Assembly (NCBI GenBank): GCA_902783255.1
Contig: CACZQB010000061.1
Span: 17,859 to 81,858 of the forward strand
Direction: 5' to 3'
DNA: 64,000 bases
Source of the DNA: Oscillospiraceae bacterium
GTDB taxonomy: Bacteria; Bacillota; Clostridia; Oscillospirales; UBA644
The position numbers were made by a program, and so were the translations under genes. Of this stretch, positions 9,322 through 54,294 are shown piece after piece. Position 1 is the first letter of the stretch. The number at the start of each line of letters is the position of its first letter. Under the pieces are notes generated by a model that was given only the letters and a program-made list of their open reading frames with translations, ran no database searches and had not been told where the DNA came from.

Positions 9322-9350
9322 TTGAAAAAAGTGAATAAGTATGATATAAT
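9322..9350 (+). promoter_or_regulatory. sigma-A type promoter in front of the large ncRNA
   Basis: TTGAAA (9322-9327), a 17-nt spacer, then TATAAT (9345-9350). Confidence 0.6.
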
Positions 9351-9356
9351 AAAAAA

Positions 9357-9975
9357 TAGATGATACAGTATCCTAGTCCGATCATCAGGCTACCAGGGTG
9401 GGCCTAAAAATCCACCGAAGGGCACATCTGTGAAACTTCTTGTGCTTGCTTCTTACGCCCAGTCTGGGGTGAGTGCTGGAAGGAAGTTCTTTTACCCTCA
9501 AGTATCTGGACTTGGGACTGCCGGGCGCCCGCAACGGCATGCGCAAGCGATCCCGTCGTCTTTGGAGACCTGCTCTCGTGGCTTGCAATATATAAAAAGT
9601 TACGGTTCAGGATTAAACCTGCAAGGCGGTTCGTTTCAGGAAAAAACCGAAAACGTGCTGTATGCAGTCGTAGCCTGTCTTGAGTGGACCCGGCGGATTG
9701 CGGCCGGACTGTGGACCATGGCCGTGGACCATAGTCTTTTGCGTTTGAAACCGGAGCTGCAAAAGAGACTAAGAGCTTTGTTGATCAGGTTAAGGAAAAC
9801 TTCTAGGCTGAGAAATATATTTCTGCATTCAAAGGATTGCAGTACGTGCTGAGTGGCAATCAAGTCGTATATGCGGCAACGCTGTACCTCGAGCTTTAAA
9901 GGGAAACCTCCTTTGCGGCGACGGAAGGAAGCTCCCGGGGAAACCTACTTGACCTAAGACGTAAGATTTACTTTG
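9357..9975 (+). ncRNA. OLE-type (ornate, large, extremophilic) structured RNA candidate
   Basis: An ~800-bp gap contains only implausible overlapping ORFs. It is GC-richer than neighbouring spacers and has many local helices: GGTGG 9397-9401/CCACC 9412-9416; GACTGTGG 9707-9714/CCATAGTC 9729-9736; GAGCTT 9891-9896/AAGCTC 9929-9934; two GG-GAAA-CC mini-hairpins at 9901-9909 and 9938-9946. It has its own promoter and no terminator before the next CDS. The synteny ispA ... RNA-4TM protein-tlyA-nadK-argR-recN matches the published OLE context. The ends given are approximate. Confidence 0.7.
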
Positions 9976-10075
9976 AATGTTATCATCACTTTTTTTGAAA
10001 CTATCTGCCGCGGTTCCGTATTTCGGATTTGCGACAGATTAATTGTATTTACTATATGCAAGAGAAAGGAAATAT

Positions 10076-25261: not shown

Positions 25262-25335
25262 GCGGGTGTAGTTCAGTGGTAGAACCCTAGCCTTCCAAGC
25301 TAGTTGTGCGGGTTCGATTCCCGTCACCCGCTCCA
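25262..25335 (+). tRNA. tRNA-Gly (anticodon UCC)
   Basis: Folded by hand into a cloverleaf: acceptor GCGGGTG/CACCCGC, anticodon stem CTAGC/GCTAG with loop CT-TCC-AA, T-loop TTCGATT, and an encoded CCA. Confidence 0.9.
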
Positions 25336-34242: not shown

Positions 34243-34290
34243 AAAACGACCATGCGGAGAAGTAACTTTTCCGCATGGTCGTTTCTGTTC
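34243..34290. terminator. bidirectional intrinsic terminator (FAD oxidoreductase gene / aro operon end)
   Basis: A perfect 13-bp stem, ACGACCATGCGGA 34246-34258 with TCCGCATGGTCGT 34270-34282, has T-rich tracts on both strands. Confidence 0.75.
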
Positions 34291-34330: not shown

Positions 34331-34756
34331 TTACTTTTCTGCCAGAATACGAAGAGCTTCGATATATCCGGCAAATCCCTTTCCCTTTACTGTTGCGGCG
34401 CAAACAGGTCTGACATACGATATTTTTCTGAATTCCTCTCTCGTGTCGGGGTCTGATATGTGGACCTCCACTGTTTTAATGCCTACTGCTTTGATCGCAT
34501 CGGCGATCGCAATGCTCGTATGCGTATATGCCGCCGGATTAATTATTATTCCGTCAAATACGCCGTATGCCTTCTGTATTTCGTCTACTATTTCACCTTC
34601 ATGATTAGATTGAAAAAAACTGACTGAAACGCTGATATTATCAGCTTCTTTTTTTATCTTATCAATAAGCTCGGCATAAGTTTCTTTGCCGTAAATATCA
34701 GGCTCGCGTATTCCGAGCATATTGATGTTCGGACCGTTAATAACAAGAATTTTCAA
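34331..34756 (-). CDS. aroQ: type II 3-dehydroquinate dehydratase
   Basis: (L/M)KILVINGPNINMLGIREPDIYG is the canonical AroQ N-terminus. A TTG start (complement of 34754-34756) has GGAGGG upstream. The ORF track extends further 5'. Confidence 0.9.
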   Translation of the reverse strand: MKILVINGPNINMLGIREPDIYGKETYAELIDKIKKEADNISVSVSFFQSNHEGEIVDEIQKAYGVFDGIIINPAAYTHTSIAIADAIKAVGIKTVEVHISDPDTREEFRKISYVRPVCAATVKGKGFAGYIEALRILAEK

Positions 34757-35978
34757 AAAAATCCCTCCGTATCTTTTCTGCGGTATCTTCAGGCGTTGCA
34801 TTGTTCTCTACACAGACATCTCTGAACTTTTCATACATCGGCATTCTTTTTTTATACATTTCAACAAGATTGGCGCCTTGCGAAAGCGGACGTCCGTTTG
34901 TGGAAAGCAGAGAAATATCTCTTTTTATTTCGTATATCCGTCCGTTTTGTTTCAGAGAGTCATAGTTTGCATCTACCGTAACTGCTCCGCCTCCGGTTAC
35001 GATTATTTTGCCTGATTTTTTCCCCTCGTTTTCAATTATCCTTTGCTCTGTTTCGCGAAAACCCTTTTCTTTGCATTCTTCAAATATCTGAGGAATGCTT
35101 TTACCTGTTTCCTGCTCTATGATCTTGTCGATATCAATCACTTCTCTTCCGGTAAGCAGGGAAAGAGCAGCTCCCACCGTGCTTTTTCCGCTGCCCGGCA
35201 TGCCGATAAGAACGATGTTTTCTTTCTCTTTTGCAAGCAGATCTGCCTTTTTTTTGGCGGTCTTTTCATCTGTTTCCGTGTCAAAAAAATACCCGTTGGC
35301 TTTTATTGCCTGTGCTGTAAGCATTATCAGACCGCCTGCAAACGGTATGCCGAGTTTTTTTGCGTCAAGGAGCAGTTTTGTGCGAAGCGGATTGTATATC
35401 ATATCCGCAACCCCGCAGCATGAGGAAAAATTTTCAAGCTCAACAGGCGATTTTCCGTTATCGGGGAACATTCCTACAGGCGTAGCGTTTATTATTATGT
35501 CCGCATCGTAATGTATGTCTATATTCCCATAATTATCTTTACCGCTTCGCGAAATCGTTACCACTTCTTTGGCTCCAAGATGCTTTACGCAGTAATCTGC
35601 CGTCTTCCCCGCGCCTCCGCTGCCAAGAACGATCACTTTTTTCCCTTCAACATTTATCCCGCCGTTTTTAAGCATTGCTTCAAAACCGTATTTATCCGTA
35701 TTGTAACCGAATAGTTTACCGTTTCTGTTCACTATGGTGTTTACTGCACCTATTTCTTTTGCTTCGGGCGAAATAAAATCGCAGTAATCCATTACAGCAA
35801 CTTTATACGGAATAGTAACGTTCAGGGCGCCGATATTCTTTTGACGTATAAACGATCCAAGGTCGTCGGGCTCAAGTTCATAAAGTCTGTAAGCGTTGTT
35901 GCCGAGCATTCGGTGAACTGAAACGGAATAGCTGTGACCGAGTTTTCTGCCCAGAAGCCCGTAGATTTTATCTTCCAT
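34737..35978 (-). CDS. aroE: fused shikimate dehydrogenase / shikimate kinase
   Basis: The N-terminal ~270 aa are AroE-like (YGLLGRKLGHSYSVSVH, NVTIPYK, GSGGAGK). The C-terminal ~150 aa are AroK-like (NIVLIGMPGSGKSTVG Walker A). It is a single ORF. Confidence 0.85.
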   Translation of the reverse strand: MEDKIYGLLGRKLGHSYSVSVHRMLGNNAYRLYELEPDDLGSFIRQKNIGALNVTIPYKVAVMDYCDFISPEAKEIGAVNTIVNRNGKLFGYNTDKYGFEAMLKNGGINVEGKKVIVLGSGGAGKTADYCVKHLGAKEVVTISRSGKDNYGNIDIHYDADIIINATPVGMFPDNGKSPVELENFSSCCGVADMIYNPLRTKLLLDAKKLGIPFAGGLIMLTAQAIKANGYFFDTETDEKTAKKKADLLAKEKENIVLIGMPGSGKSTVGAALSLLTGREVIDIDKIIEQETGKSIPQIFEECKEKGFRETEQRIIENEGKKSGKIIVTGGGAVTVDANYDSLKQNGRIYEIKRDISLLSTNGRPLSQGANLVEMYKKRMPMYEKFRDVCVENNATPEDTAEKIRRDFFENSCY

Positions 35979-37118
35979 TCATTCCTCCGAATAATTTCCG
36001 AGAAAAATCAGCTTTTTGCACTCATTTTCAATGCTTTCGAGCATTGAAACTGTTTTTTTGTCATTTACGCTCGATGCTATTTCAAAAAAGAACATGAAGT
36101 CAAAATTTCTGCCCACGATCGGACAGCTTTCAACCTTCAGTATATCTATCTCAAGTGCGGCGATTTTAGCTATTATAGAGTAAAGCATTCCCGGCTTGTT
36201 TTCGCACTCAACAACAAAGCTTATTCTGTTTGCACCCGGATATATTTCAGCGTTTTTAGAAATACAGATAAAACGAGTATAATTATTGTCGCTGTTTTGT
36301 ATATCTTCCGCAATACATTCAAGTCCGTAAAGTGCGCATCCTGAATGAGAAGCGATCGCCGCAACAGTGCGGTCCTTCCCGTCTGCAACGGATTTTGCCG
36401 CCATGGCTGTGTTCGGGAACGACTTGATAACTGCTTTTGAACCAATCTTTTTCAAAAATTCACTGCATTGACCGAGCGCCTGTTCGTGCGATCGTATTTC
36501 TTTTATATCTTCTAATCGTGTTCCGGGTAATGCGAGAAGTTCATGTCGGATAAAAAGACGGCCGCTTTTAACGATCTTTACGTTTTTTTTATGAAGCAGT
36601 TCGTATGTCGCCTTCACAGGACCATTGGAGCTGTTTTCGATCGGAACTACACCGTAACGGCAAAATCCGTTTTCCACTGCATCAAAAACAGCTTCAAAAG
36701 TTTTGAAAAACATCAGATTTCCGCGAGGAAAGAGTTTTGTTGCCGCCTCTTCGGAATATGCTCCTTCAACGCCCTGACATGCAACCGTAGCTCTCTGCGG
36801 AAGTGCCTGTTCGGAAACAGTCAAAGCTTTTTCTGTTTCCTCTTTGATTTTTGATTTTCCGTCAAACAGCGTCGCCTGATATGCTCTGCTCAGCTCAAAG
36901 ATCATCATATATAGTCTGTGCGAGTATTGCTCCAGATCACCGCTTTCGCTCATCACACGCTCAAGTATTTCATTTTCTCTCGTTTTGCTCAGAATCGGCA
37001 GCGAATGCTCTTTTTTATACTTCACTGCTTCTGCCGAAAGCTTCATTCTTTCAAGAAAAAGCGGAAGAAGTTGAGAGTCTATTGCATCGATTTCTTTTCT
37101 GATATCAGATAATTCCAT
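35979..37118 (-). CDS. pheA: bifunctional chorismate mutase / prephenate dehydratase (P-protein)
   Basis: CM domain LSDIRKEIDAIDSQLLPLFLERMKL, then a PDT domain (VACQGVEGAYSE ... IENSSNGPV), then a C-terminal ACT domain. ATG 37116-37118 has GGAGGAAAAG upstream. Confidence 0.9.
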   Translation of the reverse strand: MELSDIRKEIDAIDSQLLPLFLERMKLSAEAVKYKKEHSLPILSKTRENEILERVMSESGDLEQYSHRLYMMIFELSRAYQATLFDGKSKIKEETEKALTVSEQALPQRATVACQGVEGAYSEEAATKLFPRGNLMFFKTFEAVFDAVENGFCRYGVVPIENSSNGPVKATYELLHKKNVKIVKSGRLFIRHELLALPGTRLEDIKEIRSHEQALGQCSEFLKKIGSKAVIKSFPNTAMAAKSVADGKDRTVAAIASHSGCALYGLECIAEDIQNSDNNYTRFICISKNAEIYPGANRISFVVECENKPGMLYSIIAKIAALEIDILKVESCPIVGRNFDFMFFFEIASSVNDKKTVSMLESIENECKKLIFLGNYSEE

Positions 37119-38196
37119 TCTTTTCCTCCAGAAGCATATCAAGCAACACCGTTGAGGCAACTGCTTCGATTACAGGAACAGCTCTCACAGCCACACACGG
37201 ATCATGTCTGCCCCTTACGGTTATAAATGCATTTTCAAGTGTTTCAAGATTTACTGTTTTCTGCTCTTTTCCTATAGACGGTGTCGGTTTGAATGCTGCC
37301 CTGAATATTATAGGCATTCCGGTAGAAATACCTCCCAGTATCCCTCCGCAATTGTTGGTGGATGTCCTTATTGCACCGTTTTTTACTTCAAACGCATCAT
37401 TGTTTTCAGACCCCAGCATCTGTGACGATGAAAAACCTGAGCCGAATTCTATACCTTTTACAGAAGGAATGCCGAAAACAGCAAGCGCAATACGGCTTTC
37501 TATTCCATCAAACATCGGCGATCCTAATCCGGACGGAATACCAATAACGGCGCACTCGATAACTGCTCCGACTGAATCATTTTCAGCCGCCGCTGACTTT
37601 ATCACGTCAATCATCTTATTACCGCAAGTATCGTTTATTACGGGGAATGCTTTCAACGAGATATCTTTAAACATTTCTTTTGTTGGTTCAAGCGGAAAAC
37701 ACTCGTCTTTTTCTTTACCGACCGATGCGATATGCGCCCCGATATTTATTCCCCGCCTTTCGAGTATCTGCTTTGCTATTCCTCCCGCAATACATAAAGG
37801 TGCGGTCATTCTTCCGGAAAAATGACCTCCTCCGCGCAGATCCGCGTTTTTACCGTATTTAACAACAGCCGTATAATCGGCATGTCCCGGTCTGGGTGTT
37901 ACGTTGAATCCGTTGTAATCCGATGAATGCGCATCATTGTTTTCGATTATCGCACAAATCGGTGCGCCGCATGTTTTACCGTCCTTTATTCCCGAAAGAA
38001 AAATCGGGATATCCGACTCTTTTCTGCCTGTTGTATAATCATTCCTCCCGGGGGCGCGTCTTGACATAAAAACACGAAGTTCATCTTCGTCTATTTCTTC
38101 TCCTGCAGGCAGACCGTCTATATTAACGCCTATCGCTTTTCCGTGTGACTGACCGAAAACAGATATTTTAAGTGCTTTTCCGTATTCAGATGACAT
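37105..38196 (-). CDS. aroC: chorismate synthase
   Basis: FGQSHGKAIG, RPGHADY and GRHDPC motifs. Confidence 0.95.
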   Translation of the reverse strand: MSSEYGKALKISVFGQSHGKAIGVNIDGLPAGEEIDEDELRVFMSRRAPGRNDYTTGRKESDIPIFLSGIKDGKTCGAPICAIIENNDAHSSDYNGFNVTPRPGHADYTAVVKYGKNADLRGGGHFSGRMTAPLCIAGGIAKQILERRGINIGAHIASVGKEKDECFPLEPTKEMFKDISLKAFPVINDTCGNKMIDVIKSAAAENDSVGAVIECAVIGIPSGLGSPMFDGIESRIALAVFGIPSVKGIEFGSGFSSSQMLGSENNDAFEVKNGAIRTSTNNCGGILGGISTGMPIIFRAAFKPTPSIGKEQKTVNLETLENAFITVRGRHDPCVAVRAVPVIEAVASTVLLDMLLEEKNGII

Positions 38197-39442
38197 TCGT
38201 TATCCCTCCGAGTTTATTAAAGTCTGAAAAAAAAGTAGGATATGATTTATTTATTGCCTGTGCGCCTTTGATAATAACATTTTTTTTGCATGCTGTGGCG
38301 GCAGCAGCAGCTGCCATAACTATTCTGTGGTCATTTGCCCCGTTCGCAGTTCCGCCTGCAAGCTCGCCGTTTCCGAAAACCTTAATTCCGTCTTCTGTTT
38401 CTGCTGCTTTTCCGCCGAGAGCCGTCAGTAATTCAACTGTTGAAGCAATTCTGTCGCTTTCTTTTGTACGCAGTCTTCTGCCGCCGCTGAATTCGGATGT
38501 GCCCTTCGCGAAAGCGGCTAAAACAGCAAGTGCAGGCAACATATCTGGAATCTGGGAGATATCCGTGTCGAAAGTGCGAAGGTCTCCTTTTGAAATAATT
38601 ATACTGTTTTCTTTTACTTCAATATTCGCACCGGATCGTCTTAATATTTCCGTCGCTGCCTTATCTCCCTGCGCGCTTGACAGCGACAGCCCGTTGATCT
38701 CAACTTTGCCTTTGATCGCTGCGGCAACCATAAAAAACAACGCATTAGACCAGTCACCGTCAGCGGTTACCGTTTCAGGTGACGTGAAACCTCCGTTGCC
38801 GTATATCGTGTACTTTCCGCTTTCCGCTGTTATTTCCGCTCCGAAAAGTTTCAGCGTTGATAATGTCATATCAACATATGACGACGACTCAAGAGGTGAT
38901 GTCAAAATTATTTCGCTTTTGCCTTCAACTAAGCAAAGCGCAGTAAGAAGCCCCGAGACATACTGTGAACTGACATTGCCGGGCAATAAAAATCTGCCGT
39001 GATTCAATTTGCCTTCAGATTCAAACGGTAGTTTCTTGCCTGAAAAAGAAACTCCGCCTGACTCGATCGCTGACATAAGCTCCTCAATCGGTCTTGCGGG
39101 CAAACGGCCTCGTCCCGAAAAAGAGGCTTTTTCGCAAACTGCGCATGCGACCGGAAGAAGAAAGCGTAACGTCGTTCCGCTCTCCATACAGTCAAAAACA
39201 GGGTATTCCGCCACTTTTTTTATCGGAGTGACCACGCATTTCCCGTCCGATATTTCTGCTTTCGCGCCGAGCGCTTTCAGACAGTTTAAAGTAGCATTTA
39301 TATCGTCCGAACAAAAGAAACTTCGTATTTCCGTCTTTTTATCTGCAAAAGCAGAACATATAAGCAGCCTGTGTATATCGGATTTTGAGCCTATGGCATT
39401 GATTTTTCCGAACAGAGGGGAGGGGGTTATGTTGATATCCAT
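38186..39442 (-). CDS. aroA: 3-phosphoshikimate 1-carboxyvinyltransferase (EPSP synthase)
   Basis: GSKSDIHRLLI, ESGTTLRFL and DHRIVMA motifs. 418 aa. Confidence 0.95.
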   Translation of the reverse strand: MDINITPSPLFGKINAIGSKSDIHRLLICSAFADKKTEIRSFFCSDDINATLNCLKALGAKAEISDGKCVVTPIKKVAEYPVFDCMESGTTLRFLLPVACAVCEKASFSGRGRLPARPIEELMSAIESGGVSFSGKKLPFESEGKLNHGRFLLPGNVSSQYVSGLLTALCLVEGKSEIILTSPLESSSYVDMTLSTLKLFGAEITAESGKYTIYGNGGFTSPETVTADGDWSNALFFMVAAAIKGKVEINGLSLSSAQGDKAATEILRRSGANIEVKENSIIISKGDLRTFDTDISQIPDMLPALAVLAAFAKGTSEFSGGRRLRTKESDRIASTVELLTALGGKAAETEDGIKVFGNGELAGGTANGANDHRIVMAAAAAATACKKNVIIKGAQAINKSYPTFFSDFNKLGGITNVI

Positions 39443-40506
39443 TGATCATTTTTACCTTTGTTTATAAAATCCTCGATGTCATCTACAGCAATTTCTTTAA
39501 GAATACATTTCCCGATTTTTTCGGGAATCACTAGCGTTATTTTGTTTCCGGATCGCTTTTTATCCGATAAAGCGGCAGCAGTCATAGAAGAGCAGTCAAA
39601 AGTCGTGCTTATTGGCAGTGAAAGGCGTTTCATTAAATTTTCGATCCTATTTGCCGTTCCGATATTTGTTATGCCGCATTTTTCTCCGGCACGTGCGGTC
39701 ATAGCCATTCCGGCAGCCACGGCAAAACCGTGCGGAATCGTGTAATTACTGCATTTTTCAATTGCATGACCTATTGTGTGACCTAAATTCAGCAGCTTTC
39801 TCTCTCCGGTATCAAATTCGTCTTTTTCAACCGTCTTTCCTTTAAAAACAACACATTTTTCTATTATTGCGTCGAGATTATCTTCGATTTGGTCGTTCTC
39901 AAAATATTCAAATAATTGTTCGCTGAAAATGACACCGTATTTTATAGCCTCGGCAAGACCGTTCGAGAATTCTTTCTCTGAAAGTGTAGAGAGTGTCATC
40001 GGATCGCATATTACCGCATCCGGCTGTTTGAAGGTCCCTGCAAGATTTTTTCCGGCATTCAGATCAACGGCGTTTTTTCCACCAACGGATGAATCAACGG
40101 CGGCAAGGAGCGTTGTAGGTATTTGAATAAACTTTACGCCTCTCAGATATACAGACGCCGCAAATCCCGCAATATCTCCCGTTACACCTCCGCCGAGGGC
40201 AATCACGGCGTCGGATCGAGTCAGCTTATTATCGGCGAGAAATTCAAGAATATCAGCCAGTGTTGATATGTTTTTTGATTTTTCACCCGCATTAAAAATA
40301 TAGTGTTCCGTTGGAAGTTTTTCTTCGGCAAGAGATGAAAGCACTGTTTTAAGATACAGATCGGCAACATTCGAATCGGTTATTACTGCAATACGGCAGT
40401 CTCCCAGCTTTTCTTTAACGATTTTTCCGCAATAAGGCAGAATCCCGCTTTCGATGATCACATCGTATTCTTTGTTGACATTTATTTTTACCGTGCGTCT
40501 GTTCAT
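39427..40506 (-). CDS. aroB: 3-dehydroquinate synthase
   Basis: GGGVTGDIAGFAAS, VDSSVGGKNAV and GHTIGHAIE motifs. Confidence 0.95.
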   Translation of the reverse strand: MNRRTVKINVNKEYDVIIESGILPYCGKIVKEKLGDCRIAVITDSNVADLYLKTVLSSLAEEKLPTEHYIFNAGEKSKNISTLADILEFLADNKLTRSDAVIALGGGVTGDIAGFAASVYLRGVKFIQIPTTLLAAVDSSVGGKNAVDLNAGKNLAGTFKQPDAVICDPMTLSTLSEKEFSNGLAEAIKYGVIFSEQLFEYFENDQIEDNLDAIIEKCVVFKGKTVEKDEFDTGERKLLNLGHTIGHAIEKCSNYTIPHGFAVAAGMAMTARAGEKCGITNIGTANRIENLMKRLSLPISTTFDCSSMTAAALSDKKRSGNKITLVIPEKIGKCILKEIAVDDIEDFINKGKNDQWIST

Positions 40507-40521
40507 AGCCGTATCTCCGAT

Positions 40522-41526
40522 TTAATCTTTTACAGCGGCAGAAACCTTGGCAAGTTTTTTTACAAGAGCATCAAATGCCTCCGGTCGTATAGACTGAGGT
40601 CCGTCGCAAAGTGCATGTTCGGGATCGTTATGAACTTCTATGATCAGTCCGTCTGCCCCTGCGGCAACTGCCGCGCATGCAAGGGGCGAAACGAGTGCGG
40701 ATTTGCCGGATGCATGGCTCGGATCTATTATAACAGGCAGATGTGTCAGCTGCTTGAGGACGGGAACAGCTGAAATATCAAGAGTATTTCTTGTATATGT
40801 TTCAAATGTTCGAATTCCGCGTTCGCAAAGAATAATGTTGTTGTTTCCTCCGGCCATAATGTATTCGGCGCTCATAAGAAGTTCTTCGTAAGTAGATGAA
40901 AGGCCTCTTTTAAGCAAAATCGGCTTGCGTGTTGTTCCGAGTGCTTTCAGAAGTTCAAAATTCTGCATATTTCTTGCTCCGACCTGTATAACATCCACAT
41001 CATCAAATGAGTCAAGATGTTCGATATCCATTATTTCCGTTACTATCGGAAGCCCTGTCATTTTTTTTGCGATCGAAAGCAGCTTCAGTCCTTCGTCTCT
41101 CAGTCCCTGAAAAGAGTAGGGGGATGTTCTCGGCTTGAACGCTCCTCCTCGAAGAAGCGTAGCCCCGCTTTCTTTTACCTGCTTAGCAATGGAACATATC
41201 TGTTCTTCGGATTCTACAGAACAGGGTCCCGCTATAAGTGTGAGACTGCCTCCGCCTATAGATGTATTGCCTACTTTTACAACAGTATCGTCGGGATGAA
41301 ATTTTCTGTTGGCGTTTTTATATGGTTCCTGAACGCGGCGAACGCCTGCAACTATGTCAAGAGCCGAGATAAGATCTATATCGAGATGCGAAGTGTCGCC
41401 TACCAGTCCGAGTATAGTCTGCGTAGTACCGACAGTAGGATGAATTTCAACGCCCTTTGATTCAAGCCATTTAATAAGACTGTCAAGCTGCGCTTTGTCA
41501 GGATTGGGTTTGAGAAGTACTATCAT
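40522..41526 (-). CDS. aroF: 3-deoxy-7-phosphoheptulonate (DAHP) synthase, type I-beta, with N-terminal ferredoxin-like regulatory domain
   Basis: The core resembles KDO8PS/DAHPS I-beta (GPCSVES, LLRGGAFKPRTSPYSFQG, IDPSHA). The ~70-aa N-terminal extension resembles the Thermotoga-type FL domain. Confidence 0.9.
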   Translation of the reverse strand: MIVLLKPNPDKAQLDSLIKWLESKGVEIHPTVGTTQTILGLVGDTSHLDIDLISALDIVAGVRRVQEPYKNANRKFHPDDTVVKVGNTSIGGGSLTLIAGPCSVESEEQICSIAKQVKESGATLLRGGAFKPRTSPYSFQGLRDEGLKLLSIAKKMTGLPIVTEIMDIEHLDSFDDVDVIQVGARNMQNFELLKALGTTRKPILLKRGLSSTYEELLMSAEYIMAGGNNNIILCERGIRTFETYTRNTLDISAVPVLKQLTHLPVIIDPSHASGKSALVSPLACAAVAAGADGLIIEVHNDPEHALCDGPQSIRPEAFDALVKKLAKVSAAVKD

Positions 41527-41538
41527 AGAAAATCCTCC

Positions 41539-41571
41539 AAAAAAAACTCACAGCCGGTGTTCAGCTGTGAG
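41539..41571 (-). terminator. intrinsic terminator (attenuator segment 3:4) directly upstream of the DAHP synthase RBS
   Basis: On the minus strand, CTCACAGC (41571-41564), loop TGAACACCG, GCTGTGAG (41554-41547), then T8 (41546-41539) running straight into GGAGG-N7-ATG. Confidence 0.85.
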
Positions 41572-41622
41572 AATATTGTGTATTATTGTTCGGAGTTTTC
41601 ACTCAAAATTCTTTACACTTTT

Positions 41623-41712
41623 TCAGCTAAACACAACCGGGCTTTGCTTGTTAAAGTAAAATGCAAAACCGAAAAAGAAATATTCAGCTGTAAAAAAGCG
41701 AGATCTTTTCAT
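41623..41712 (-). CDS. aro leader peptide, 29 aa, MKRSRFFTAEYFFFGFAFYFNKQSPVVFS
   Basis: Translated by hand base by base. GGAG lies 6 nt upstream of the ATG. The peptide has 9 Phe and 2 Tyr codons in 29. The stop codon TGA lies inside attenuator segment 2. It is below the ORF-track length cutoff. Confidence 0.7.
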   Translation of the reverse strand: MKRSRFFTAEYFFFGFAFYFNKQSPVVFS

Positions 41713-41743
41713 TACAAACTCCGTTTTGACTCAGTATGCGTGT

Positions 41744-41771
41744 ATTATAGCACAACCGTTTTTTTTGTCAA
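41744..41771 (-). promoter_or_regulatory. sigma-A promoter of the aro operon leader
   Basis: On the minus strand: TTGACA (41771-41766), 16-nt spacer, TATAAT (41749-41744). Confidence 0.7.
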
Positions 41772-41817
41772 GAGTAAAACTTTCGATTTTACAAATTTTT
41801 CAGAATTAAGTCTGCTT

Positions 41818-42168
41818 TTACGTGTTTTTATCCGTTGAGTGAAAAGTTTTAAGATTGCCTGTTTTTAACGATCTTTTTTCAAGTTCGGCATTGATGTCGT
41901 CAGGTGATATGCCGAGGGATGCCATCATAACCGTAAGATGATAATACAGATCGCATATTTCTCCTATAAGCTCGGACCTTTTTTCCGTATCACCGTCTGC
42001 GCGTTCGGCGTTTTTTGCGGCAATAACCGTTTCGGCGCATTCTTCTCCAACTTTTTTCAGTATCTTGTCAAGTCCTTTTTCAAAAAGATAACAGGTATAA
42101 GATCCTTCCGTTTTTTCGGTTTTTCTTGACAGCACAACGTCGTAAAGTTCGCTTAATGTATCTTTCAT
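41818..42168 (-). CDS. hisE: phosphoribosyl-ATP diphosphatase
   Basis: MazG-like HisE pattern [31 protein letters not shown]. Confidence 0.9.
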
Positions 42169-47526: not shown

Positions 47527-49179
47527 TTAAACTTTGAATACTTCAAACAAAATTTCGTCTATCGCCTTTTTTCTGAGTTTTGTTGCGGCGATATTTGCAA
47601 CTATTCTTGCGGAGATCGGAAATATCTCTTCTATTATCTCAAGCCCGTTTTCTCTCAGAGTATCTCCTGTTTCAACTATATCCACAATACCGTCCGCAAG
47701 CCCGAGAATTGGTGCAAGTTCCACGGATCCTTCTATGGATACGGTTTCAACGTCGGCCTTTTTTGCTGCTGCATATCGTTTTGCAATATTGACAAATTTA
47801 GTTGCAATGATTTTTTTTGAGTATCCTCCGAAAAAACTGTCGGGGTCGTTTTTATATTTTGCCGGACCTGCAAGCGCCATTCGGCACGCGCCGAAGCCGA
47901 GATCGGCAAGCTCATATACTGATGTTCCGTATTCCGCTATAGTGTCGCTTCCTACTATTCCCAGATCACATACGCCGCGCTCAACATATGTTATAACGTC
48001 ACGGCTTTTTACAAGCATAACTTCAAATTTACCGTTCTGCAAAGGAAAAACAAGTTTTCTTCCTTTATTGATAAGCGATGAACAGTCAATACCGTTTTTT
48101 TCAAACAATTCTATCGTTTTCTTTTCAAGTCTGCCTTTTGTAAGAGCGATGCGAATGGGACGGGCCGGCGCGGCGATTGTTGCTTCGTTCTTTTTATCTT
48201 TAAGAAGATCAAAAATATCGTCTACCGTAACGCTGAATCCCGTAGCGGCAAGCGCTCTTCCGAAATTTGCGGTAAGATTGTCGTATCTGCCTCCGAGTAA
48301 TACTGCATGCCCAAGCCCCTTTACAAATCCGCCGAAAATTATGCCTGTATAATAATCCAGACGGCCTACAAGTCCGAGGTCGAAGGATAAACAGTCGCCG
48401 TATCCTTTTTCTTTGAGGCTTGTTATTATCGATTTGATATAATCGATTATCTGTTTTATTTTTTCGGAACCGGTTTCGCTAACAATAGCATCAAGCCCCG
48501 CAAGATCTTCCTCACTGGCGCTGCCGAACATCTTTGGCAGCATTTTGAATGCCTTTGGGATATTCATCGTTTCTATTGAGGCAAAGTTTTTTGTTTCAAT
48601 AAGTTTTCGGACGGTTTCCGCCGTTTCATCACCAATTCCGTATAACTCCGCAAGCGTCGTGAAAAGCTTTCCATGACCAATCTCTATGTTGAAATTCAGA
48701 CCGAAAAGCTTTTCCATGCTTTTTGAGGCAAGCTCAAGAATTTCGACATCGGCGTCCAGCGGGTTTTGTGCGTTCGTTCCTATCAGCTCGGCGCCGCACT
48801 GTGTTTCTTCAGTCAGTCTGTTGCCCATCGTTGGGGCGGAAAAAACATTCTGACAGTAAAAAAGTCTGTAGGGCAGGGGCGTATCAGCCAGTTTCGTTGC
48901 AGCGATACGCGCGATCGGAACAGTACAGTCGCACCTGAGCGCCATAAGCCTGTTTTGTTCATCGGTAAACTTATATACGCTGTTCCCCATCGGTCTTGTC
49001 GGATCAGCAGAAAAAACATCGTAATACTCGGCAGTCGGGGTAACGGTTTCTTTATATCCCGATTCTTTCATCAGTGATATCAGTTTTTCGCATATGCCGC
49101 GCCTGAGCTCAGCATCTCCGAAAATATAATCTCTTCTTCCGTCTGTTCTTCCGTAGTCAATTGATTTCATATAAAACAT
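47527..49179 (-). CDS. hisZG: fused ATP phosphoribosyltransferase regulatory (HisZ) and catalytic (short HisG) subunits
   Basis: The N-terminal ~330 aa are HisRS-like HisZ (TPTAEYYDVF, RLFYCQNVF, LGLVGRLDYYTGIIF). The C-terminal ~210 aa are HisG-short (IRIALTKGRLEKKTIELF, DLGIVGSDT). It is one uninterrupted 550-aa ORF. The start is ATG 49179 or ATG 49170. Confidence 0.85.
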   Translation of the reverse strand: MFYMKSIDYGRTDGRRDYIFGDAELRRGICEKLISLMKESGYKETVTPTAEYYDVFSADPTRPMGNSVYKFTDEQNRLMALRCDCTVPIARIAATKLADTPLPYRLFYCQNVFSAPTMGNRLTEETQCGAELIGTNAQNPLDADVEILELASKSMEKLFGLNFNIEIGHGKLFTTLAELYGIGDETAETVRKLIETKNFASIETMNIPKAFKMLPKMFGSASEEDLAGLDAIVSETGSEKIKQIIDYIKSIITSLKEKGYGDCLSFDLGLVGRLDYYTGIIFGGFVKGLGHAVLLGGRYDNLTANFGRALAATGFSVTVDDIFDLLKDKKNEATIAAPARPIRIALTKGRLEKKTIELFEKNGIDCSSLINKGRKLVFPLQNGKFEVMLVKSRDVITYVERGVCDLGIVGSDTIAEYGTSVYELADLGFGACRMALAGPAKYKNDPDSFFGGYSKKIIATKFVNIAKRYAAAKKADVETVSIEGSVELAPILGLADGIVDIVETGDTLRENGLEIIEEIFPISARIVANIAATKLRKKAIDEILFEVFKV

Positions 49180-49224
49180 CCAACACTTTATCGATTTACC
49201 ACTTTACCGAAATAAAGTATAGCT

Positions 49225-49253
49225 ATTTTAGCATATTTTTTCACGATTGTCAA
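49225..49253 (-). promoter_or_regulatory. sigma-A promoter of the his operon
   Basis: On the minus strand: TTGACA (49253-49248), 17-nt spacer, TAAAAT (49230-49225). Confidence 0.65.
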
Positions 49254-49307
49254 TCATAAAATAATGCTTTTAGAAAAAAGTTTACAAAATGACCGTCAGT
49301 TTCCGGC

Positions 49308-54139: not shown

Positions 54140-54216
54140 GGCGGAATAGCTCAGTTGGCTAGAGCATACGGTTCATACCCGTACGGTCGCCGGTTCAAAT
54201 CCAGCTTCCGCTACCA
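54140..54216 (+). tRNA. tRNA-Met (anticodon CAU, elongator-like loop TTCATAC)
   Basis: Hand-folded: acceptor GGCGGAA/TTCCGCT (G1-U72), D-arm GCTC..GAGC, anticodon stem TACGG/CCGTA, T-loop TTCAAAT (one mismatch in the T-stem), and an encoded CCA. A lysidine-modified tRNA-Ile2 cannot be excluded. Confidence 0.8.
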
Positions 54217-54219
54217 TTC

Positions 54220-54294
54220 GGCCCGTTAGTCAAGCGGTTAAGACACGGCCCTTTCACGGCTGGGGCAGCAGTTCGATTCTGCTACGGGTCACCA
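54220..54294 (+). tRNA. tRNA-Glu (anticodon UUC)
   Basis: Nearly identical in pattern to Bacillus tRNA-Glu (GGCCCGTT.GTCAAGCGGTTAAGACAC...CTTTCAC...TTCGA.TC...ACGGGTCACCA). Confidence 0.9.

Follow-up and report, generated by a model that had tools for sequence, protein, structure and literature searches.

A very likely Phe/Tyr leader-peptide attenuator before the shikimate/phenylalanine operon of an Oscillospiraceae bacterium, with counterparts in related Clostridia

The stretch of Oscillospiraceae bacterium DNA analysed here (64,000 nucleotides of contig CACZQB010000061.1; hereafter the window) carries on its minus strand a seven-gene shikimate/phenylalanine (aro) operon headed by a 3-deoxy-D-arabino-heptulosonate 7-phosphate (DAHP) synthase gene, and its sequence makes it very likely that the leader in front of this gene is a ribosome-mediated (leader-peptide) transcription attenuator of the operon, in which a short open reading frame (ORF) rich in Phe and Tyr codons would report on tRNA charging. 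Charged Phe-tRNA would be sensed, and Tyr-tRNA probably as well. The elements of the switch are present, its pairings are mutually exclusive, conservation and covariation are evident among relatives, and the arrangement fits a model of the ribosome footprint. A preliminary description of this DNA had proposed attenuation of the pheL/trpL type, and this logic is supported by the mini-ORFs of relatives, by covariation of the antiterminator (2:3) and terminator helices, and by folding with the ribosome footprint masked.

All leader features lie on the minus strand. The promoter is of the sigma-70 type (41744-41771) and joins TTGACA (41771-41766) to TATAAT (41749-41744) across a 16-nt spacer that ends in TGc, an extended -10; it matches at 12/12 positions and is the sole perfect promoter across the 9 kb scanned. 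Transcription is predicted to start near 41737, about 25 nt 5' of the ATG of a leader ORF (41623-41712) that encodes MKRSRFFTAEYFFFGFAFYFNKQSPVVFS in 29 codons followed by UGA, and the Shine-Dalgarno (SD) sequence GGAG (41719-41722) lies 6 nt 5' of this ATG at 41712. Nine codons specify Phe, two Tyr and none Trp, so that starvation for Trp would not be sensed by the leader. Codons 11-20 (41653-41682; Y F F F G F A F Y F), eight of them aromatic, form the regulatory run that we propose as the stall zone. On re-reading of the minus strand the promoter coordinates given in the preliminary description proved right and the match perfect, and the GGAG, the 29-codon ORF and its Phe and Tyr codons were all as claimed.

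Three 11-nt segments of the leader account for the alternative structures. Segment 1 (seg1; CAGCUGAAUAU, 41680-41690) spans codons 8-11 and is the 5' strand of the anti-antiterminator; seg2 (GUGUUUAGCUG, 41624-41634), within which the UGA (41625-41623) falls, is the switch strand and takes either seg1 or seg3 as its partner; and seg3 (CAGCUGAACAC, 41557-41567), which forms the antiterminator with seg2, also makes up the upper 6 nt of the 5' arm and the loop of an intrinsic terminator (3:4; 41539-41571). Read from the window sequence, seg1:seg2 comprises 11 contiguous pairs, 3 of them G-U, and seg2:seg3 comprises 11 pairs with a single G-U; the segments, their coordinates and both pairings had been described correctly. 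The terminator consists of a 10-bp stem (41571-41547, one G-U), a 5-nt loop (AACAC) and a tract of eight U (U8; 41546-41539), with a folding energy of -15.7 kcal/mol. Its position and U8 stand as first drawn, but the stem, given before as 8 bp, is better drawn as 10 bp closed by a 5-nt loop, and the overlap with seg3, rightly noticed, extends to 6 nt of the 5' arm and the whole loop, not to 4 nt of the arm. The ribosome-binding site (RBS) of the DAHP synthase gene, GGAGG (41538-41534), and its ATG (41526-41524) follow directly 3' of the U-tract, and because the terminator does not sequester this RBS, control would be exerted on transcription.

The 1:2 helix of the window far exceeds 11 bp, running from about 41703-41680 with 41634-41611, and encloses an apical hairpin (41640-41670) in which GGUUUUGC (41670-41663) pairs with GCAAAGCC (41647-41640). 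The 5' arm and loop of this hairpin carry aromatic codons; that it acts as a pause or timing hairpin for RNA polymerase is speculation. The whole leader folds into the long 1:2 hairpin plus the terminator at -60.6 kcal/mol (z = -4.5), an energy matched by 0/200 shuffles. In the minimum-energy fold, CGGAGUUU (41716-41723, minus strand), which includes the leader SD, also pairs with AAACUCCG (41591-41598), 3' of seg2, and in this model the outer helix would keep a further ribosome from initiating on the folded leader.

What we infer from these elements about the transcription start, leader translation, stalling, kinetics and in vivo response can be put as follows. Transcription would begin some 25 nt 5' of the 29-codon ORF, and a ribosome amply supplied with charged Phe-tRNA (and probably Tyr-tRNA) would cross the aromatic run, reach the UGA in seg2 and cover seg2, whereupon seg3 and seg4 would form the terminator and RNA polymerase would halt at U8, before the DAHP synthase gene. 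Were the leader untranslated, the long 1:2 hairpin would retain seg2 and the terminator would likewise form. When charged tRNA-Phe/Tyr is scarce, the ribosome would stall at codons 11-16, its footprint hiding seg1 and leaving seg2 free to pair with the emerging seg3, so that no terminator would form and the seven-gene operon would be transcribed. Folding of the alternative structures, a check proposed in the preliminary description, came out in favour of this scheme when a 27-nt ribosome footprint was masked on the leader. With the A site on codons 12-16, a placement that covers seg1, the nascent RNA up to the terminator loop has the 11-bp 2:3 helix as its minimum-energy fold; a ribosome placed at the stop codon hides seg2 and lets the terminator form; and when no ribosome is present, 1:2 and the terminator form together.

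The leader recurs in related DAHP synthase loci, and its occurrence there is not due to chance. A DAHP synthase protein scan, restricted to one genome per species, yielded 80 loci, mostly from Oscillospiraceae, other Oscillospirales, Lachnospiraceae and Anaerovoracaceae (best match 81% amino-acid identity), of which 77 had enough flanking sequence. A short upstream ORF with at least five aromatic codons in some 8-codon window was present in 58/77 loci, compared with 0/77 on the reverse strand and 2.7% of shuffles, and this enrichment is specific to frame and strand, T[T/A][T/C] codons being the ones enriched in frame. An SD-like 4-mer was found at 52/56 related mini-ORF starts versus 21/152 (14%) control ATGs, a promoter matching at 10/12 positions or better lies 20-45 nt 5' of the mini-ORF in 39/56 related loci versus 2/56 reverse-complement controls, and a strong hairpin with U-tract separates the mini-ORF from the DAHP synthase gene in nearly all mini-ORF loci. 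The expectation that a Phe-rich mini-ORF would be found in relatives is borne out by these counts, together with its SD, promoter and terminator. The related leader peptides are 16-40 aa long and share in many cases the motif (A)AEY[FY][FY]F, while the number and order of Phe and Tyr vary freely. Cultured carriers of the element include Oscillibacter valericigenes Sjm18-20 (L004) and Hominicoprocola fusiformis CLA-AA-H269 (L033). Loci without the mini-ORF are mostly of another type, from contigs labelled Bacteroidaceae, Treponema or Victivallales, with pheA next after the DAHP synthase gene.

Using a pattern of seg1 plus the following codons, we recovered 93 stretches from metagenomes, in which every genuine aromatic mini-ORF match with enough contig (22 loci) precedes a DAHP synthase gene. 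One such contig, L126, encodes an identical leader peptide and a 99.7%-identical DAHP synthase and so represents the species of the window; a relative at 97.6% shows two conservative changes in the leader peptide. The other matches to the pattern were set aside as chance, including a repeated element in one sample that encodes MTAEYFYF and is unrelated to aromatic genes. This repeat (ATGACAGCTGAATATTTTTATTTT) is multi-copy and intergenic, is bounded by inverted repeats (GTCATGCCAGC...GCTGGCATGAC), lies beside unrelated genes and resembles repetitive extragenic palindromic (REP) sequences or miniature inverted-repeat transposable elements (MITEs); it occurs in stretches L087, L091, L108, L111, L120, L122, L134, L136, L157 and L168 of sample Ga0207084.

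The same data bear on whether the mini-ORF is spurious or encodes a small hydrophobic protein, the hairpin and U-tract then being a terminator or insulator of the upstream his operon that senses nothing. Gene callers do list the relatives' peptides as 'hypothetical protein', and his transcripts need a terminator somewhere, since we found no minus-strand terminator between hisE and the aro promoter (41772-41818). However, the hairpin lies 3' of a perfect promoter and a mini-ORF and just before the DAHP synthase RBS, the order promoter, SD, mini-ORF, terminator is kept in >50 species, and a constitutive terminator at that site would silence the operon. The peptide, moreover, is conserved only in its aromatic codons and in the parts that are paired as RNA, it belongs to no Pfam or NCBIfam family, and the antiterminator and three-way covariation described below imply a switch. 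We therefore give a mini-ORF and terminator devoid of sensing next to no credence.

To evaluate the helices, we specified them by hand and counted pairs column by column in two alignments, A1 (25 sequences) and A2 (32 sequences, comprising A1 and the metagenome relatives), with slid registers and shuffles as controls. The 2:3 antiterminator is paired at 93.3% in A1 and 90.5% in A2, with compensatory changes at 5/9 and 6/9 pairs, respectively; its score was reached by 0/500 shuffles, and slid registers were paired at 27-55%. Compared with shuffles locus by locus, the uninterrupted seg2:seg3 helix reached p<=0.05 in 29/58 loci and p<=0.01 in 20, a test that undercounts bulged cases. The terminator is paired at 96.5% and compensatory at 8/9 pairs across the 32 sequences, and the apical hairpin at 86% with 4/8 pairs compensatory. 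At the positions common to 2:3 and 3:4, changes in seg2, seg3 and seg4 go together, as in the combinations GG/CC/GG, GU/UG/AC and AC/UG/AC, where the window has GA/CU/GG; in these alignments such three-way covariation is the signature of alternative structures. RNAalifold, run on the 25-sequence alignment, recovered the terminator alone. Per-locus RNAduplex z-scores were noisy because G+C-rich terminator arms find partners in shuffles, and the column-wise covariation and uninterrupted-helix tests were used instead.

The position of the codons relative to the RNA segments is conserved as well. The last codon of seg1 opens the aromatic run in 24/25 aligned leaders, and the run lasts 7-10 codons in 25/25. 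Relative to the 3' end of seg2, the stop codon is found at -10 to +30 nt in 21/25 relatives (full range -29 to +30). The peptide itself is not conserved 3' of the run, and the motifs that do recur, AAEY and GKA, are those encoded by seg1 and by the 3' arm of the apical hairpin. An indel of 2 nt in the apical loop distinguishes the window from locus L081, whose DAHP synthase is 88% identical; this indel leaves all RNA segments intact and shifts the frame, as a result of which the stop of the window falls inside seg2; the reading frame of seg2 thus differs between the window on one side and L081 and the Oscillibacter group on the other. Because the peptide varies 3' of the run while the RNA segments are kept, selection acts on in-frame aromatic codons and RNA pairings and not on a functional peptide.

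These observations leave little room for the nascent peptide as the sensor, that is, for arrest of the TnaC or SecM kind in which free Phe or Tyr, or another signal, and not tRNA charging, would make the conserved AAEY...F.F motif halt the ribosome. The recurrence of (A)AEY[FY][FY]F in many relatives is what such a peptide would leave, but AAEY is encoded by seg1 (GCAGCUGAAUAC), so its conservation is explained by RNA pairing. The sequence after the run is not conserved, the reading frame of seg2 changes even between relatives, and the freedom in length (16-40 aa) and in the number and order of Phe and Tyr is unlike that of arrest peptides; induction by an excess of amino acid would, besides, have the wrong sign for a biosynthetic operon. 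We consider an arrest peptide extremely improbable.

Between the end of the apical hairpin and seg2 (A2 columns 75-83; about 41639-41631 of the window) the RNA is U-rich in most relatives, for example GGCUUAUUUCGG. TTNTTT-like motifs in this part resemble the NusG-dependent pause signals of B. subtilis, and the U-rich stretch could be a pause-like motif or could equally consist of additional Phe and Tyr codons.

Several points weigh against the attenuator reading. The terminator is thermodynamically favoured in the full-length RNA under every condition, and because the complete RNA always favours it, antitermination must be kinetic, as in classical attenuators; in the folding model it would lean on polymerase pausing and kinetics. 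Bacillota have been classed at the phylum level as organisms of 'runaway' transcription, in which the polymerase outpaces ribosomes (PMC13323073), so that synchrony of ribosome and polymerase cannot be assumed. Ribosome-dependent attenuation has been reported in B. subtilis (PMC4191407; PMC6851288, the latter with NusG-dependent pausing), and an attenuator of this kind widespread in Clostridia would require pausing or coupling. Nor is a response to Tyr guaranteed, since aroR of Corynebacterium is affected by limitation for Phe and not by the availability of Tyr. Among the helices, the 1:2 core is paired at 83.9% in the 32 sequences and is nearly invariant, but it is compensatory at only 2/9 pairs and does not exceed shuffles, and half of the relatives lack a pair at one internal position (A2 columns 16:87). 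A longer version of 1:2 is paired at 70.7% versus 30-47% when slid. On the present alignments the 1:2 pairing is therefore backed by conservation and slide controls, not by covariation, and with so little covariation and an unpaired internal position the anti-antiterminator is less secure than the other helices. Compensatory changes had been suggested as a check for all three segments; 2:3 and the terminator show them strongly, whereas 1:2 barely does. The outer helices that would sequester the SD gave 47.7-48.9% pairing across the alignment, near the slid background. They were accordingly rejected as a conserved part of the switch and are lineage-specific or fortuitous. L126 and L110, the closest relatives, retain the pairing with G-U changes.

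Covariation of terminator and antiterminator alone is silent on the identity of the sensor. One alternative is a riboregulator that works without the ribosome, in which the switch would be operated by binding of a TRAP- or PyrR-like protein, of uncharged tRNA as in a degenerate T-box, or of a small ligand, and the ORF would be a by-product of U-rich triplet repeats. Most described amino-acid attenuation in Firmicutes is indeed due to T-boxes or RNA-binding proteins (PMC2965389, PMC9413887), diverged T-boxes may escape Rfam (PMC5314783), and UUU/UAC triplet repeats could in principle form a protein-binding array. Searching Rfam 15 with cmscan at E<=10, however, we obtained only three noise matches in 41300-42000 (AfaR and snoRNAs; E 2-6) and hence no family at E<=1 on the leader; at the gathering threshold there was nothing relevant on the leader, in a scan of the whole window, or in 20 related loci. 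T-boxes and the known Rfam leader families (Phe_leader, leu-phe_leader) were rejected as candidates, as none of their models matched at E<=10. No T-box was matched in the window or in the 20 loci; the antiterminator is a plain helix, and the leader contains neither the UGGNACC core of T-boxes nor a specifier architecture. The features that point to translation, by contrast, are all conserved: the start codon, the SD (52/56) and an open frame through the run, with a codon enrichment that is in frame and strand-specific (0/77 on the reverse strand). Finally, the run abuts seg1 at footprint distance and the stop tracks seg2, neither of which a protein or tRNA sensor needs. A riboregulator of this kind seems to us very unlikely, if a little less so than the other two alternatives.

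The Phe:Tyr mix of the leader codons follows the content of the operon. In most relatives the DAHP synthase gene and aroB are separated by tyrA (PDH_N/PDH_C), whereas no tyrA homologue was found in the operon of the window or anywhere in its 64 kb, and the operon contains pheA. Leaders of operons in which tyrA adjoins the DAHP synthase gene have a Y/(F+Y) fraction of 0.475 (n=39), and the others one of 0.30 (n=11), a difference with p = 3e-4 in a Mann-Whitney test that ignores the kinship of loci. With pheA and no tyrA, the window has a value of 0.18. The comparison is suggestive of a match between leader composition and operon output.

Tyr/Phe-specific T-box leaders precede aromatic biosynthesis genes in Bacillus and Clostridium; they serve the same task, in that tRNA charging governs antitermination, and the same output, but their sensor is uncharged tRNA bound to RNA, with no translation involved. 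The leu/phe-leader of Lactococcus is catalogued as RF01743 in Rfam. Ribosome-dependent leaders in Firmicutes further include the Leu leader of Streptococcus leuA, which is supported by Term-seq (PMC5314783), and the His leaders of bacilli, Peptostreptococcaceae and Erysipelotrichales (PMC2965389, PMC9413887). These Leu, His and leu-phe leaders, rare as amino-acid leader peptides are in Firmicutes, share mechanism class and phylum with the element described here and demonstrate that ribosome-mediated attenuation works in this phylum; their amino acids or targets differ, and none acts on the shikimate operon of Clostridia. The preliminary description had called leader-peptide control unusual for Firmicutes, which is true when measured against the T-box norm and overstated in view of the Leu, His and Phe upstream-ORF (uORF) precedents and of how common the element is among relatives of this organism; the statement is, for these reasons, only partly right.

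The closest parallels lie elsewhere. In Corynebacterium glutamicum, aroR-aroF likewise places a leader with Phe and Tyr codons before an operon that starts with DAHP synthase, and in the account of Neshat et al. (2014) given in PMC11802643, stalling under Phe limitation raises transcription while Tyr availability has no effect. The host is actinobacterial, though, and aroR has only Phe-Tyr-Phe where the Clostridial run has 7-12 aromatic codons; aroR is experimentally supported, whereas the Clostridial leader is known here from its sequence, and the likeness is one of description. The pheL-pheA system of E. coli and other gamma-proteobacteria (Rfam Phe_leader; PMC3082878) shares the Phe-rich leader ORF and the 1:2/2:3/3:4 logic, with an intrinsic terminator that precedes a chorismate mutase-prephenate dehydratase gene, but its covariance model did not match at E<=10, it controls pheA alone and not the whole shikimate pathway, it belongs to another phylum, and it uses Phe codons only, whereas the Clostridial leaders mix Phe and Tyr according to operon content. 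The bioinformatically defined candidate uORFC-13-1 of Acholeplasma aroF (PMC8632094), from a host lineage related to Firmicutes, also combines a promoter, an RBS and a Phe-coding U-run before a terminator and aroF; it differs in being confined to Acholeplasma and unassigned environmental sequences (24 representatives) and in having 'at least one' Phe codon. This comparison was made by text description only, and no Rfam 15 family matches the leader of the window.

The mechanism proposed here is thus classical and already known, and the Clostridial leader reveals no new one; what seems uncatalogued is the Clostridial version, which is probably a large family. Leader peptides searched against NCBIfam (ten) and Pfam (seven) matched 0 families at E<=10, public sets name them only 'hypothetical protein' or 'Uncharacterized protein', and a literature search found no published description of a Phe/Tyr leader element in Clostridia. 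One cluster of leader peptides at 90% identity nevertheless has 33 members on well over a thousand contigs. Whether this uncatalogued family is the predominant cis-regulator of DAHP synthase and shikimate genes across several orders of Clostridia, its F:Y mix tuned to tyrA and pheA, is a broader proposal that we make tentatively, judging it plausible but somewhat short of probable; it would span Oscillospiraceae, Acutalibacteraceae, Faecalibacterium, Lachnospiraceae and Anaerovoracaceae.

If the proposal is true, many abundant gut anaerobes use the synchrony of ribosome and polymerase to control amino-acid synthesis within a 'runaway' phylum, and leader attenuation takes the place of the T-box solution expected for Firmicutes. 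With Bacillota classed as 'runaway', the leader lends itself to asking whether transcription and translation are coupled in Clostridia or synchronised by pausing. It also offers a concrete, testable model of aromatic amino-acid regulation in cultured and uncultured gut Clostridia, a group about whose gene regulation little is known, and a well-supported new RNA family, with three-way covariation and >50 species, for which Rfam, NCBIfam and Pfam have no entry. The correlation of codon mix with operon content suggests that leader composition evolves with pathway output, and removal of the attenuator would be an obvious lever for the production of aromatic compounds in these anaerobes.

The operon itself extends over 34331-41526 on the minus strand, and its genes abut or overlap; the seven presumably form a single transcription unit. 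Pfam agrees with the order aroF-aroB-aroA-aroC-pheA-aroEK-aroQ given in the preliminary description, including the N-terminal ferredoxin-like domain that precedes the catalytic domain of the DAHP synthase, and assigns to PheA the domain order chorismate mutase (CM), prephenate dehydratase (PDT), ACT. Shikimate dehydrogenase and shikimate kinase are fused in a single 413-aa aroE-aroK ORF (34737-35978, minus strand). A perfect 19-bp hairpin (34244-34284) separates the end of aroQ (34331) from the end of a convergent, plus-strand flavin adenine dinucleotide (FAD)-oxidoreductase gene (34206), and is probably a bidirectional terminator that closes the aro operon.

Upstream of the aro operon lies the tail of a his operon (Pfam), whose last gene, PRA-PH/hisE, ends at 41818, only 46 nt from the -35 of the aro promoter. 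Transcription of the his operon probably continues into the aro leader, whose attenuator terminator may also serve as that of the his operon. The his operon opens with an apparent hisZ-hisG fusion (47527-49179, minus strand), a 550-aa ORF that combines a HisZ-like part (tRNA-synt_His) with HisG (ATP phosphoribosyltransferase). Its own leader (49180-49307, minus strand) has the promoter TTGACA-17-TAAAAT and was found to contain no His-codon mini-ORF, no T-box and no terminator, so that control is presumably of another kind, for example by a HisR-type repressor. A scan of the whole window for other mini-ORFs with amino-acid runs returned only out-of-frame noise inside genes, and no second attenuator. 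Three tRNAs are encoded at 25262-25332, 54140-54213 and 54220-54291, and a full-length ornate large extremophilic (OLE) RNA lies at 9344-10002 on the plus strand (395.6 bits, E = 1e-112).

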